Shown: piece by piece, positions 14,083-36,641 of the stretch | How positions within the stretch are numbered: position 1 is the stretch's first letter | Layout of the letters: each line of letters opens with the position of its first letter | Virus record (IMG/VR): IMGVR_UViG_2558860473_000005 | Location: 1-41,949 of that record | Reading direction: 5' to 3' (one strand) | Origin: a virus | Lineage: Duplodnaviria; Heunggongvirae; Uroviricota; Caudoviricetes | DNA length: 41,949 nt | Notes under the pieces: generated by a model | Told to the model about the DNA's origin: nothing | Seen by the model: the letters and a program-made list of their open reading frames with translations, nothing else | The model's database searches: none | Position numbers and translations under genes: made by a program

Positions 14083-14289
14083 GTGGCTGAGTTAATTTTC
14101 TCTGCATTGAGGCTTCTCGGTGCTCTGTGGATGGTGGCGACGTTCATTGTGGTTGCTGTCTGTTTTGTCCGGTTGGTAGGCGAAGGTAAAGACCTGGCGG
14201 GTGTGCTTTTCGGTAGCATTCTCATGTGGGTGATTATCGGTGTTGCGCCTGTCGCTGTAGCAAAAATGGCGTGGTGTTTTGTGAGTTGA
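14083..14289 (+). CDS. Small hydrophobic (probably 2-TM) membrane protein, 68 aa
   Basis: GGGAGAG RBS; GTG start per ORF track; largely hydrophobic sequence. Confidence 0.5.
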   Translation: MAELIFSALRLLGALWMVATFIVVAVCFVRLVGEGKDLAGVLFGSILMWVIIGVAPVAVAKMAWCFVS

Positions 14290-17549: not shown

Positions 17550-17591
17550 CAGCATGATTGCCACGGATGGCAACATATTAACGGCATAATA

Positions 17592-17626
17592 TTGACTTTT
17601 TGAATAAAGTTGGGTAAATTTGACTC
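17592..17626 (+). promoter_or_regulatory. Late promoter PR' (-35 TTGACT, -10 TAAATT) with qut region
   Basis: Matches the lambda PR' region by recall; 17-bp spacer. Confidence 0.8.
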
Positions 17627-17820
17627 AACGATGGGTTAATTCGCTCGTTGTTGTAGTGAGATGAAAAGAGGCGGCGCTTACTACCGATTCCGCCTAGTTG
17701 GTCACTTCGACGTATCGTCTGGAACTCCAACCATCGCAGGCTGAGAGGTCTGTAAAATGCAATCCCGAAACAGTTCGCAGGTAATAGTTAGAGCCTGCAT
17801 AACGGTTTCGGGATTTTTTA
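17627..17820 (+). ncRNA. 6S RNA-like PR' leader transcript ending at tR'
   Basis: About 194 nt from the predicted start to the tR' hairpin (ATCCCGAAAC ... GTTTCGGGAT + U-run at 17762-17820), as in lambda. Confidence 0.6.
17762..17820 (+). terminator. tR' intrinsic terminator (Q target)
   Basis: 10-bp stem followed by TTTTTT. Confidence 0.8.
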
Positions 17821-17828
17821 TATCTGTG

Positions 17829-18330
17829 TAACAGGTAAGAGCATTCTCCCTTATGGGGCTTGGCTTAAATGCACCGAGTGCTCTTAGCGTTGTGGCAGCA
17901 CAACGATAGTTTTCGTCAGAGTTGGCGACTTTGCGGTTTTTTAGAAACTGACCACAAAGATAAATGCAAACGATGATGTTGTTCTGATGGCGGCGTAATA
18001 GCCTGTAAGTCAGCAAGGTCTTCCGACTCCTTGTAAACAAATTCGGCGCACTGGCCCGGTGTGATTAATAATGGGCACACAACAGGTAAGAGCATTAAAG
18101 AACTGGCAAAGAGCTTAACGGTCTGCGAAAGCATTTCTTAGTGGCACAACTGGCCGGTACAACTGAGTGCTCTTTCCGGTGTGGTGAATGCGCAGGCTGA
18201 TGCGCGCAGGAGAGCTTCGGAAGAACAAGGTGCCTGTATACAAGCCGGAGATCAGCGCCGGCCACCACAGCCAAATCCACCCAGAGTAAAACCGTTGTTC
18301 ATCCTTACCATTCCCTCAGTATTTTGGGCT
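17829..18330 (+). repeat. Tandemly duplicated, diverged ~250-bp unit in the late leader, marked by AACAGGTAAGAGCATT direct repeats (17830-17845, 18081-18096)
   Basis: 16-bp perfect direct repeat 251 bp apart; each unit carries a GAGTGCTCTT...GTTGTG-like segment. Confidence 0.5.
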
Positions 18331-18427
18331 ACAACCCTCAGCCCATTTTTTAAAGCGTACTTCCACCAAGAACCAGACCTAACCAACTCATTGCTGACAC
18401 TCTGTTGATACGGTGGTCTAGTGCGCT

Positions 18428-18460
18428 TTAAAAAAAGAAAACCCAGCATCAATGGCTGGG
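18428..18460 (-). terminator. Minus-strand intrinsic terminator-like hairpin in the late leader
   Basis: CCCAGC-atcaatg-GCTGGG preceded on the + strand by an A-run, i.e. hairpin plus U-run on the minus strand. Confidence 0.4.
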
Positions 18461-18623
18461 CTTCGTGATATGAGCGGCATGTATTGTTGGCGCAATCCAC
18501 GCCTGATTTGCTCATGAATGCGGTCACGAACAAACCCGTTACAAATCAACCGTAACCCGGATTTGTTCAAGCGACCATATCCATAATTCCTAATTTGAAC
18601 AGATCCCCTTCTGGGGGTAAGAC

Positions 18624-19841: not shown

Positions 19842-20280
19842 TAGCGATAATTCTACTCATCATCCTTCACATCTGGCTCTGTAGACAGGGTGGTGATCAC
19901 TTCTGGAGTGAATCCAGATTAAACATCTCATTGCTGATGCTTGAAGTTAAGCATATGGCGCGCGGCAAGGGGCTGCGTTGAGATAAGAGCCAGTTCATTA
20001 CAAAGCCTATCTACGGGTGGGCTTGATAATGAAACCGGAATTTATTCTGGGTAACCAGTTACGGCAGTACAGCGAAACAACCCAAGCCAGAAAGTGGGGA
20101 AATAACACTGGCAGCCACTGAAAGATGAACCTCCAGCCTTATGGCAAAAAAGATTCTTTGTGGTGGCGGACTGATGGAAAGACATCGGATAGAATAAAAC
20201 AGTGGCTAGGGTAGCTGCCGAAAAGCGGAATCGTCACCGCCTGCCACTGAATCTATGACGAACAACTAGACGAGGTTGTG

Positions 20281-30363: not shown

Positions 30364-30818
30364 TGATTCAGTTCAAACCAACGCGAAACATCGACCTGAT
30401 AGAAGCCGTGGGAAATCACCCCGACATTATCACCGGGAGCAACAACGGTGATGGATACGACTACAAGCCTGAATGCCGTTACTTCGAGGTGAACGTGCAC
30501 GGGCAGTTCGGCGGAATTGTTTACTATCAGGAGATTCAGCCGCTTACATTCGATTGCCACGCCATGTACCTGCCAGAGGTTCGTGGATTCAGCAAGGAAA
30601 TCGGGATGGCGTTCTGGCGATACATTCTTACTAACACCACCGTTCAGTGCGTCACATCGTTCGCTGCACGCAAATTCCGCCACGGTCAGATGTACTGCGC
30701 AATGATTGGCCTTAAGCGTGTAGGAACCATCAAGAAATACTTCAAAGGCGTGGATGACGTGACGTTTTACAGCGCCACACGCGAAGAACTAATCGACTTC
30801 CTGAATCACGGGAGATAG
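30363..30818 (+). CDS. Head assembly protein (P22 gp14-like), 151 aa
   Basis: Position and size in the conserved 26-14-7-20-16 order. Confidence 0.6.
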   Translation: MIQFKPTRNIDLIEAVGNHPDIITGSNNGDGYDYKPECRYFEVNVHGQFGGIVYYQEIQPLTFDCHAMYLPEVRGFSKEIGMAFWRYILTNTTVQCVTSFAARKFRHGQMYCAMIGLKRVGTIKKYFKGVDDVTFYSATREELIDFLNHGR

Positions 30819-36573: not shown

Positions 36574-36577
36574 AGTT

Positions 36578-36609
36578 GAAGCCCCAACTGCTGGAACAGT
36601 CAGGGCTTC
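36578..36609 (+). promoter_or_regulatory. Extended hairpin in the arc-ant intercistronic region
   Basis: GAAGCCC...GGGCTTC with inner ACTG/CAGT stem; no U-run on either strand. Confidence 0.35.
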
Positions 36610-36641
36610 GGTATCAACAAAACTTACGAGGTATTATTGAT

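Follow-up and report, generated by a model that had tools for sequence, protein, structure and literature searches.

The window, meaning the whole 41,949-nt stretch of DNA analysed here, belongs to a P22/HK620-like phage, and its late leader measures 1074 bp from the stop codon of Q to the start codon of S, compared with 676 bp in lambda. Within this leader the exact 16-mer AACAGGTAAGAGCATT occurs twice, at 17830-17845 and 18081-18096, spaced 251 bp. What does the repeat mark, and what accounts for the extra length? The repeat lies beyond chance expectation, as 2000 Markov resamples of the leader never gave one of 16 (maximum 14).

Repeated motifs and hairpin cassettes of the late leader

The initial annotation read the two 16-mers as belonging to a ~250-bp leader unit that had been tandemly duplicated and had later diverged. 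Its observations on the repeat and on the longer leader are confirmed, as is the single occurrence of the motif pair (16-mer plus a related 23-mer) in lambda. The 23-mer does follow each 16-mer (17873-17895 and 18162-18184, 83% identical), but the distances, said to be similar, are 43 nt and 81 nt. The duplicated unit itself did not survive comparison: without the 16-mer, the two copies share 135 identical columns versus 137.7 ± 3.7 for shuffled sequences, which places their interiors at the level of shuffled sequence, and self-BLAST returned the two short motifs and nothing more. What had been overlooked is that the GAGTGCTCTT segment is the reverse complement of the 16-mer, so that each such pair forms a hairpin stem. 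The 16-mers supply the 5′ sides of stem-closed RNA cassettes, whose arm A (AAGAGCAUU) is paired to arm B (AGUGCUCUU). The features of the leader are as follows.

17550 to 17822, + strand: lambda-type pR′/qut/6S RNA/tR′ module, 97% identical to lambda 44510-44805
17761-17815, + strand: tR′ hairpin and T run (inverted repeat)
17830 to 17887, + strand: cassette 1, with 16-mer 17830-17845 and a 31-nt insert; fold z = -2.6
17837-17845 and 17877-17885, + strand: cassette 1 arms A (AAGAGCATT) and B (AGTGCTCTT)
17888 to 17905, + strand: mini C/C′ hairpin CGTTGTGGCAGCACAACG, from a terminator-like match and fold
17906-18080, + strand: core RNA gene between the cassettes, 175 bases, structured
18081 to 18177, + strand: cassette 2, with 16-mer 18081-18096 and a 69-nt insert
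18088-18096 and 18166-18174, + strand: cassette 2 arms A and B
18178 to 18272, + strand: C/C′ domain, in which GGUGUGGUG pairs with CCACCACAGCC; fold z = -2.0
18327 to 18352, + strand: terminator-like hairpin and T6; the homologous HK620 site is annotated 'tQ'

The pairing of the arms is supported by compensatory changes in ~40 cassettes of related phages (for example AAGGGCGCT/AGCGTCCTT, AATGACACT/AGTGTCATT and AAGGCAATT/AGTTGCCTT), and the T·G wobbles of the arms (G·U in RNA) pair on the + strand only. Lambda has one A/B cassette, just 3′ of tR′, which folds into a ~20-bp helix (z = -3.5), whereas the two cassettes of the window have shorter helices of 12-13 bp. Cassette 1 is found on ~260 E. 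coli plasmids of 81-102 kb (~95% identical) and, placed after the core RNA, in Citrobacter phage KMM2 (~88% identical). The mini C/C′ hairpin that follows it occupies the site of a large C/C′ domain in other phages. Cassette 2 also occurs in HK620 and at loci L033 and L125. The C/C′ domain behind it encloses two hairpins (18190-18205 and 18244-18262), the complementary loops of which (GGCUGAU and AUCAGC) are candidates for loop-loop pairing, and its arms covary across phages when compared by eye (GUUGUGCUG/CAGCACAAC in lambda, GUUGUGAC/GUCACAAC in L092).

The homologies of the leader change at these same arms. Lambda homology (97%) ends exactly at 17845, the final base of the first 16-mer, HK620 homology (93.8%) begins at 17904, and the piece between them is common to P1-like plasmids and Felix-like phages. 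As the three segments differ in their homologies, the extra ~400 bp are mosaic cargo, which bears out the proposal of the initial annotation that the leader received an insertion in a region used by lambdoid phages for cargo; here the cargo is an RNA gene. HK620 has the double-cassette arrangement as well, and so do 84 of 5,426 complete E. coli genomes; this is thus a module arrangement that recurs, not a private duplication. A tandem duplication would account for an exact 16-mer recurring at 251 bp with a related 23-mer behind each copy. It fails because the repeats are helix arms of two different cassettes with unrelated interiors: these complementary motifs flank unrelated inserts in ~40 cassettes, and the nearest relatives differ among the three segments, so that we regard a duplication as exceedingly improbable. 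The best explanation is that the conserved arms are junctions where phages exchange modules and that the late leader is a string of stem-closed modules. Conserved 'boundary' sequences of lambdoid late leaders are thereby explained as RNA helix arms.

A tmRNA-like RNA gene between the cassettes

The core RNA was found in 758 of 50,697 phage records, spread over at least five ICTV families or genera in addition to lambdoid and T1-like phages (Ackermannviridae, Felix O1-like, T1-like, Chaseviridae, P1-like, HK620 and lambdoid phages), and is almost always left without annotation. Felix-like and Moogle-like phages carry it within their tRNA arrays, in the orientation of the tRNAs, and in T1-like and P1-like phages it adjoins tRNAs. 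Sigma-70-like promoters are situated immediately 5′ of the T1-like and Felix-like copies; no own promoter was found in the window, where expression of the core RNA would consequently rely on late read-through. When one genome of each bacterial species was scanned for exact 23-mers, matches came from two species only, which makes the core essentially a phage element. No Rfam family matches the region at the gathering threshold.

The conserved block coincides with a minus-strand open reading frame (18095-17916) of 59 aa, the ATG of which lies in the reverse complement of the second 16-mer. That it is a small protein gene has next to no probability in our view, and we ruled it out: the frame is unconserved, with 29-30 aa or a frameshift in most homologues, searches of Pfam and PHROG gave no match, and the helices rely on G·U pairs of the + strand.

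Read on the + strand, the core RNA contains the following elements.

17907 to 17943, + strand: 5′ domain, antisense to E. coli ssrA nt ~68-107
17961-17965, + strand: frame-setting motif UAAAU, in the region of weak Rfam tmRNA matches
17966-17968, + strand: resume codon GCA
17966-17995, + strand: tag template of 10 codons (ANDDVVLMAA), then stop UAA at 17996-17998
17984 to 18013, + strand: P5-like helix (outer and inner stems) round the last tag codons and the stop
17984-17987 with 18010-18013, + strand: P5-like outer stem CUGA/UCAG, 98.8% paired
17989-17991 with 18001-18003, + strand: P5-like inner stem GGC/GCC, weaker, 66.7% paired
18014 to 18046, + strand: pseudoknot 'PK2', 98% of cells paired, compensatory changes in 6 of 8 pairs
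18014-18018 with 18029-18033, + strand: PK2 stem CAAGG/CCUUG
18023-18026 with 18043-18046, + strand: PK2 stem CCGA/UCGG
18047 to 18076, + strand: pseudoknot 'PK3', compensatory changes in 6 of 10 pairs, conserved loop GGUGUGAUUAAUAAU
18047-18052 with 18058-18063, + strand: PK3 stem CGCACU/GGUGUG
18054-18057 with 18073-18076, + strand: PK3 stem GCCC/GGGC

This anatomy resembles the messenger half of tmRNA: a 10-residue tag of the form AND....AA without a start codon (direct reading of the sequence gave none in frame), a P5-like helix that holds the stop, and pseudoknots 3′ of the tag. UAAAU|GCA is invariant across copies, and exactly 10 codons plus a stop are retained in all 32 copies examined. 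The tag region exists in 21 nucleotide versions that encode 13 peptides matching the pattern AN[DE]x..[AV]A, with a pN/pS of 0.57 in frame versus 1.10 and 0.99 off frame. Rfam tmRNA matches, below gathering score and covering the messenger part only, were obtained for the window and for five of the six related loci searched. The best Rfam match of the core is the permuted-tmRNA model; viral contigs hold genuine permuted tmRNAs (tags ANDERFLMAA and ANDNAFLMAA) to which the tag region aligns, with an identical AUAAAU|GCA AAC GA context. Work on tmRNA has shown that the frame is set by A86, at position -4, that pseudoknots and tag template can be replaced, and that the spacing between PK1 and U85 is not critical (PMC2481249).

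Covariation supports the fold. PK2 and PK3 together show compensatory changes in 12 of 18 pairs, and one pair of the P5-like outer stem is changed on both sides (GC in 16, AU in 6). For the structure as a whole, 91% of cells are paired versus 37-45% when slid, 15 pairs carry double changes, and the covariation score of 0.259, which none of 500 shuffles reached, compares with 0.139 ± 0.010. A candidate PK1 (AGUUU/AAACU and CUUUG/CAAAG) is 86-92% paired and nearly invariant; one of its 10 pairs is changed on both sides, and beyond that pair none shows compensation. The nucleotides of this candidate PK1 are the same as those of the domain antisense to ssrA. Structure, strand, family and tag conservation are shown, and the tmRNA-like anatomy is well supported.

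The other half of a tmRNA is missing from the core. ARAGORN, which called ~20 genuine tmRNAs in control loci, reported no tRNA or tmRNA gene in the 42-kb window and no tmRNA at 30 homologous loci, and a tRNA-like domain (acceptor stem with G3·U70, T-arm, CCA) was absent by ARAGORN, by Rfam and by eye. Unlike tmRNA, the core has no acceptor stem, T-arm, CCA or acceptor piece, it has two downstream pseudoknots only, and its 5′ end is antisense to another tmRNA rather than forming P1/P2. A 5′ motif, GUUUUCGUC, was compared with the tmRNA D-loop analogue GGUUUCGAC as a possible homologue and rejected, the sense similarity being at background.

The core could be the coding piece of a genuine two-piece phage tmRNA, permuted or split, that works in the ordinary way and has its acceptor piece encoded nearby or elsewhere, too divergent for recognition. 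The permuted-tmRNA model and the viral-contig relatives of the tag region would fit this idea, as would a G·U pair in the A/B helix and T-arm-like hairpins in the core-adjoining cassette inserts of L100, L037, L045, L059 and L114. In these cassettes, however, position 3:70 would be U·G instead of G·U, and direct reading of the sequence found no 3′ CCA after the candidate A arms. Closing the core in acceptor-like fashion, with the B arm upstream and the A arm downstream of it, was likewise rejected: the arms covary within A-insert-B hairpins, with no covariation across the core. In the sense orientation, moreover, the 5′ end does not significantly resemble that of genuine tmRNAs. We therefore rejected a full or permuted tmRNA for the element as it stands and consider a two-piece phage tmRNA quite unlikely. 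The best explanation is that the core RNA gene derives from the messenger part of a tmRNA, without the tRNA-like domain. Lacking that domain, any use of the tag template requires an arrangement in trans, for which we know of no natural precedent.

A 5′ domain antisense to host tmRNA

The 37 nt of the 5′ domain are identical at 34 positions to the reverse complement of E. coli ssrA, the sole target used for the antisense analysis. The opposed ssrA region comprises the PK1 3′ strand, the A-rich linker, the resume codon and tag codons 1-6. This host PK1 3′ strand is engaged in pairing in native tmRNA, and the site may be covered by SmpB or S1. The predicted duplex between the 5′ domain and ssrA extends over 17904-17956 (44 bp, -50.5 kcal/mol, in folding models that leave out pseudoknots and proteins). 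Duplex energy has no discriminating power of its own, since predicted values go down to -59 kcal/mol for GC-rich tiles from other parts of the window, and a collinear alignment test took its place as the antisense statistic. In this test the 5′ domain scores 36 and ranks first among 8,378 window tiles (background 15.0 ± 2.1, maximum 27); the score lies ~10 sd above background and was reached by none of 300 shuffles. Antisense to ssrA was found in all 24 distinct 5′ domains, including those of Aeromonas and Erwinia phage copies, and is lacking in genuine tmRNAs. Predicted duplexes of Felix-like and Moogle-like copies and of L045 are much weaker (-26 to -31 kcal/mol). Pairing of the 5′ domain in cis with the tag region of the element itself was rejected as background: the mean score is 29.4 in trans (against ssrA) versus 14.8 in cis.

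tmRNA-SmpB is the main ribosome-rescue system of bacteria and an antibiotic target, and it is required by some phages (lambda-immP22, Mu). From the antisense match we infer a docking mechanism on host tmRNA, and we think it somewhat more probable than otherwise that the core RNA docks there and blocks or replaces the tag template. The core RNA would be made late, from pR′ by Q-antiterminated transcription, and may be freed by cleavage at the flanking helices, with a predicted 5′ end near GAUAGUUUUCG. It would then pair with host tmRNA along the PK1 3′ strand and on through the resume codon to tag codon 6 (UAGUUUUCGUC and GACGAAAACUA being the putative partners), and normal SsrA tagging would be disturbed. 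The template would, most likely, also be offered, because the tag template is intact and selected and U(-5)A(-4) lies just 3′ of the docking helix; that ribosomes under rescue by SmpB and the host tRNA-like domain may be presented with the core template is the least certain step. A reading in which ~40 bp of docking replace host PK1, mask the host template and supply that of the phage is accordingly a tentative one, which we would hold possible but doubtful. Were it true, the core RNA would place its own frame-setting motif and a 10-codon template beside the host tRNA-like domain and SmpB, ribosomes rescued during infection would append a tag chosen by the phage, such as AANDDVVLMAA or AANDNVFLAVA, in place of AANDENYALAA, and host and phage RNAs would form a natural inter-species two-piece tmRNA.

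Another interpretation is that the leader acts in cis only, as a set of late-mRNA processing or stability elements (RNase III sites, for instance) and recombination linkers that includes a decaying tmRNA-like relic with accidental complementarity to ssrA. Daniels et al. reportedly described RNase III processing sites in the lambda late leader in 1988 (Virology 167:568; cited in PMC7547250), and the single lambda cassette, just past tR′, resembles such a processed hairpin, the coincidence with the cleavage sites being a candidate one. The mosaic joints at the arms also fit, as do the substitutions of the 5′ domain (6 wobble-compatible versus 5 transitions and 17 transversions), which show no wobble-compatible enrichment. 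Against this, the core is not confined to mRNA leaders: virulent phages have it in tRNA arrays and with promoters of its own. An antisense score so far above background is also hard to put down to accident. Its conservation in hundreds of records, its covarying helices and its never-broken tag frame are features that a relic would lose, and a leader acting in cis only is in our judgement unlikely.

The core RNA could also be a decoy that acts without base pairing, by titrating S1, the SmpB tail or RNase R, or by sponging the GcvB sRNA through its CA-rich junctions. Pseudoknots 2 and 3 of tmRNA cross-link to S1 (PMC2481249), a phage-borne partial tmRNA in mycobacteriophage DS6A, consisting of the tRNA-like domain only, is thought to inhibit host tmRNA by titration (PMC4131195), and the C′-A junctions read CACAACA, the GcvB R1 target consensus (PMC4104026). 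CACAACA is, however, a mere 7-mer, the Rfam AgvB and AsxR models do not match, and a decoy leaves both the 34/37 antisense match and the selected tag frame unexplained, so that we rate it as very unlikely.

Taken with the docking reading, these findings suggest that phages tamper with bacterial ribosome rescue. If the core RNA pairs with host tmRNA, phages would steer ribosome rescue and proteolytic tagging directly via RNA, by means of a conserved RNA that has been left unannotated in hundreds of phages, including relatives of HK620, P1, Felix O1, Vi01 and T1. That would open the questions of why phage tRNA islands hold non-tRNA RNAs, which role trans-translation has in infection, and whether a tag template can be provided in trans. 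Annotators gain a new RNA family to call.

Parallels among tmRNA derivatives and phage anti-sRNAs

Literature searches on tmRNA-like phage RNAs, phage-encoded tmRNA and tag peptides yielded nothing relevant, and those on natural anti-tmRNA turned up no natural counterpart of synthetic anti-tmRNA oligonucleotides. Like the 5′ domain, these oligonucleotides are antisense to the tmRNA template region, but they are artificial DNA; they suppress trans-translation in vitro and in cell-free translation (PMC3384345, PMC7038980), with blocking of >95% in vitro in one study (PMC7038980).

Full tmRNAs are known from Bxz1-like mycobacteriophages and Bacillus phage G, alongside the partial one of DS6A, in a survey of 543 phage genomes that lists no enterobacterial phage (Hudson, Lau & Williams 2014, PMC4131195). 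The core RNA is, like these, a phage-borne tmRNA derivative. Unlike the DS6A fragment, in which the tRNA-like domain is kept, it retains the messenger half, to which an antisense domain is joined.

AgvB and AsxR are phage-encoded anti-sRNAs of EHEC prophages (Tree et al. 2014, PMC4104026). Their Rfam models gave no match to the region even at E ≤ 10, and an identity of the core with AgvB, AsxR or Pas sRNA was rejected, as the models do not match and the corresponding papers describe no such element. AgvB and AsxR are Hfq-dependent RNAs of 51-60 nt with their own promoter and terminator, encoded on the opposite strand in convergent pairs and carrying no tag template, whereas the core RNA is ~175 nt long, has no terminator of its own and has tmRNA, not an sRNA, as its proposed target. 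The 'moron' site 3′ of pR′ that encodes AgvB and AsxR also encodes the core RNA, and the way in which they act, a 5′ region pairing with a host non-coding RNA and blocking it, is the one proposed for the core.

Helix-closed cassettes in the late leader

The window represents a P22/HK620-like lambdoid phage whose late leader, at 1074 bp, is longer than that of lambda (676 bp), as the initial annotation had stated. The exact 16-mer AACAGGTAAGAGCATT that it had picked out does occur twice in this leader (17830–17845 and 18081–18096), which none of 2000 Markov resamples of the leader matched, and each copy is followed by a related 23-mer, a motif pair found once in lambda. The spacing from 16-mer to 23-mer, described as similar, differs between the copies (43 nt in the first, 81 nt in the second). 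Outside the 16-mer, the two supposedly diverged ~250-bp copies share 135 identical columns compared with 137.7 ± 3.7 after shuffling, and a duplicated 250-bp unit is therefore rejected. The observation was thus partly right and its reading as a duplication wrong: the motifs frame an undescribed, widespread phage RNA (the core or element), which probably targets host ribosome rescue.

Features of the late leader (window positions)
17549: end of Q
Directly after Q: lambda-type pR'-qut-6S-tR' module
17837–17845 pairing with 17877–17885: cassette 1
17906–18080 (+): core, 175 nt
18088–18096 pairing with 18166–18174: cassette 2
18624: start of S (holin gene)

Since AAGAGCAUU in the 16-mer and AGUGCUCUU in the 23-mer are complementary, each pair closes one hairpin, here called a cassette, in which arms A and B surround an insert. 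We catalogued ~40 cassettes with inserts of 31–97 nt in the window, lambda, HK620 and P1-like, T1-like and Ackermannviridae phages, among which compensatory arm variants are numerous (AAGGGCGCT/AGCGTCCTT, AATGACACT/AGTGTCATT, AAGGCAATT/AGTTGCCTT, AAGCTGCTT/AGGCAGCTT and, in HK620, AAGAGCATA/TGTGTTCTT). In the canonical A/B pair there are T·G wobbles that the opposite strand could read only as A·C mismatches, so the arms form RNA helices of the + strand. Alternating with the A/B cassettes is a second helix type, C GUUGUGGUG / C' CACCACAAC, which covaries as well (CUG/CAG in lambda where others have GUG/CAC; GUUGUGAC/GUCACAAC in the related locus L092).

Mosaic joints coincide with helix arms. 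Identity to lambda (97%) stops at 17845 and identity to HK620 (93.8%) begins at 17904; 17830–17894 is common to ~260 E. coli plasmids of 81–102 kb, and 17837–17885 to Citrobacter phage KMM2, where it is located after the core, not before it. The double-cassette arrangement also occurs in HK620 and in 84 of 5,426 complete E. coli genomes, with no annotation among the sampled hits. Identity of cassette 1 with its insert is ~95% on the plasmids, whose size is that of P1-like phage-plasmids, and ~88% in Felix-like and Moogle-like phages (e.g. locus L005, 1335–1380); the insert itself is therefore a conserved module.

In core-adjoining cassettes of other loci (L100, L037, L045, L059, L027, L114 and L008), inserts carry T-arm-like hairpins, such as GGTAGAGGGTTCGAATCCCTAC, GGCGGTTCGACTCCGC and TTAGGTTCAACTCCTAA, directly 5' of the B arm. 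These might be decoys resembling a tRNA or the tRNA-like domain (TLD) of tmRNA; ARAGORN made no calls on them. In addition, CACAACA(GG), which contains the sequence published as consensus target of the GcvB sRNA R1 seed (CACAACA; PMC4104026), is found at junctions before A arms (window 18079–18085, ~1179–1185 of the lambda locus L001 and most C'–A junctions in related loci), and the C arms look like the GcvB seed itself. The cassette array could be a GcvB sponge, or the resemblance a coincidence.

A widespread tmRNA-like RNA

A distant BLAST search of the region matched hundreds of unrelated phages. The core alone has matches in 758 of 50,697 phage records (334 covering 80% or more of its length), and none of 12 sampled matches was annotated. 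Carriers include Taipeivirus and Kuttervirus (Ackermannviridae), Felixounavirus, Mooglevirus, Chaseviridae, Punavirus (P1-like), Lederbergvirus HK620, one Aeromonas phage, and records whose size suggests that they are T1-like (46–48 kb) and N4-like (~72 kb). The element lies within the tRNA array of Felix-like and Moogle-like phages and adjoins tRNAs in T1-like and P1-like phages; wherever tRNAs are nearby, they share its strand. T1-like and Felix-like copies have a promoter (TTGACA-17-TAGATT/TAAGAT) ~10 nt upstream. A minus-strand ORF coinciding with the core in the window was rejected, being truncated or frame-shifted in most homologues, with no family matches.

We class the element as a tmRNA derivative. 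At relaxed thresholds, Rfam tmRNA models match its + strand below threshold (permuted tmRNA, 27.4 bits; beta-tmRNA), as they do in five of six related loci searched. The matched stretch, AUAAAU GCA AAC GAU GAU GUU GUU CUG AUG GCG GCG UAA, reads ANDDVVLMAA without an in-frame start codon. Tag length does not vary: in each of the 32 copies examined, exactly 10 codons precede a stop (UAA, UAG or UGA), and 21 nucleotide versions give 13 peptides, among them ANEEMYLAVA (HK620), ANDNVFLAVA (Felix-like phages), ANDNTFLAVA (Ackermannviridae), ANDDLMMVAA (P1-like phage) and ANDSEMRVAA (Aeromonas phage). In the tag frame pN/pS is 0.57, compared with 1.10 and 0.99 in the other two, stop-filled frames. 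UAAAU|GCAAACGA is invariant among copies, and its A(-4) and U(-5) are counterparts of the E. coli tmRNA bases A86 and U85, by which the reading frame is fixed (PMC2481249).

We specified a structure by hand, comprising two H-type pseudoknots and a helix that encloses the last tag codons and the stop, and scored it on 22 distinct sequences. In this structure 91% of cells are paired (37–45% with slid partners), 15 pairs are changed on both sides (8.7 ± 1.7 in shuffles) and the covariation score is 0.259 (0.139 ± 0.010), values reached by none of 500 shuffles.

ARAGORN also identified genuine, mostly permuted tmRNAs in other loci sharing the 14-mer ATAAATGCAAACGA; their tags include ANDERFLMAA, ANDNAFLMAA and ANDEVFALAA, with which the window's tag region aligns. 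Permuted (two-piece) genes with 10-residue tags, some adjoining tRNAs, are present on IMG/VR environmental viral contigs (L019, L047, L057, L015, L063, L021, L013 and L060), and because they share the element's resume-codon context they may be its ancestors. The element has no TLD: ARAGORN and Rfam called neither a tRNA nor a tmRNA anywhere in the 42-kb window, and no tmRNA at any of 30 homologous copies. A survey of 543 phage genomes reported ssrA, the tmRNA gene, for mycobacteriophages and Bacillus phage G alone, and DS6A has a TLD-only fragment (PMC4131195).

A 5' domain antisense to host ssrA

These results show an RNA of the + strand that is conserved and structured, has a tmRNA-type tag template under selection and lacks a TLD, and whose 5' domain is antisense to the template region of host tmRNA. 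The 5' motif UAGUUUUCGUC, which does not vary among copies, is perfectly complementary to GACGAAAACUA of the E. coli tag codons, as checked on real ssrA, and 17907–17943 is identical at 34 of 37 positions, with two indels, to the reverse complement of ssrA nt ~68–107 (the 3' strand of pseudoknot PK1, A-rich linker, resume codon and codons 1–6). The antisense score of 36 is the highest of 8,378 window tiles on both strands (background 15.0 ± 2.1, maximum 27) and was reached by none of 300 shuffles; the highest background scores lie at ~30501–30600 (+) and ~14151–14220 (-). The predicted duplex with ssrA has 44 bp and -50.5 kcal/mol, an energy that alone is not discriminating, as GC-rich window tiles get to -59 kcal/mol; the net cofolding gain is -15.8 kcal/mol, compared with -5.5 ± 2.3 for shuffled 5' domains.

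Each of the 24 distinct 5' domains, those of the Aeromonas and Erwinia phage copies among them, keeps 23–35 complementary positions, and the mean score is 29.4 for pairing in trans with ssrA versus 14.8 with the element's own remainder. Codons 4–6 of its tag differ from those of the host, and the element is therefore without self-complementarity. Genuine tmRNAs have antisense scores of 16–22. Predicted pairing is weaker for Felix-like copies, and the substitution pattern of the 5' domains gave no added support for antisense pairing. In the sense orientation, the 5' region resembles the 5' ends of genuine tmRNAs only at background level, the sole significant case being a small additional hairpin in window-type 5' domains (17913–17928, UCGUC-AGAGUU-GGCGA) that resembles the PK1 hairpin of the L015 tmRNA (score 23, matched by 1 of 300 shuffles).

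Proposed mechanism and neighbouring features

Because a promoter search in the window's leader found none, the RNA would be made only once Q lets RNA polymerase read past tR'. The two cassette helices flanking the element are candidate processing sites; lambda's cassette is predicted to form a ~20-bp helix, and RNase III sites have reportedly been found in the lambda late leader. The RNA would then anneal to host tmRNA. Trans-translation is blocked by synthetic antisense oligonucleotides directed at the same site (PMC7038980, PMC3384345), so inhibited normal tagging would be the minimal consequence. The frame-setting motif and tag template are retained 12–22 nt beyond the docking helix, and E. 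coli tmRNA tolerates replacement of its pseudoknots and template, with no critical spacing between PK1 and U85 (PMC2481249), which together make use of the phage template by the host TLD and SmpB after docking plausible, though less likely than not. Should both docking and the hand-off of the template prove real, this would be a categorically new mechanism.

We found no description of the element in the searchable literature and no Rfam family for it. It is proposed to work partly like the coding piece of tmRNA, yet without a tRNA-like domain it is not a member of that class; likewise it may partly act as a phage anti-sRNA, but does not show the AgvB/AsxR features and is not one of these.

Two terminators converge ~160 nt upstream of S:

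18327–18352 (+): HK620 'tQ'
18438–18464 (-): strong terminator, GAAGCCCAGCCATTGATGCTGGGTTTTC plus T7

This layout is known from EHEC prophages, where anti-sRNA genes converge 3' of pR' (PMC4104026). A small minus-strand sRNA may adjoin S; the Rfam models for AgvB and AsxR gave no match. Elsewhere in the window, two RNAs reach Rfam gathering level, namely sar RNA (P22 immI antisense RNA; 36574–36640 (-), 66 bits) and, just past the lysis genes, the int-alpA RNA motif (20199–20261 (+), 41 bits).
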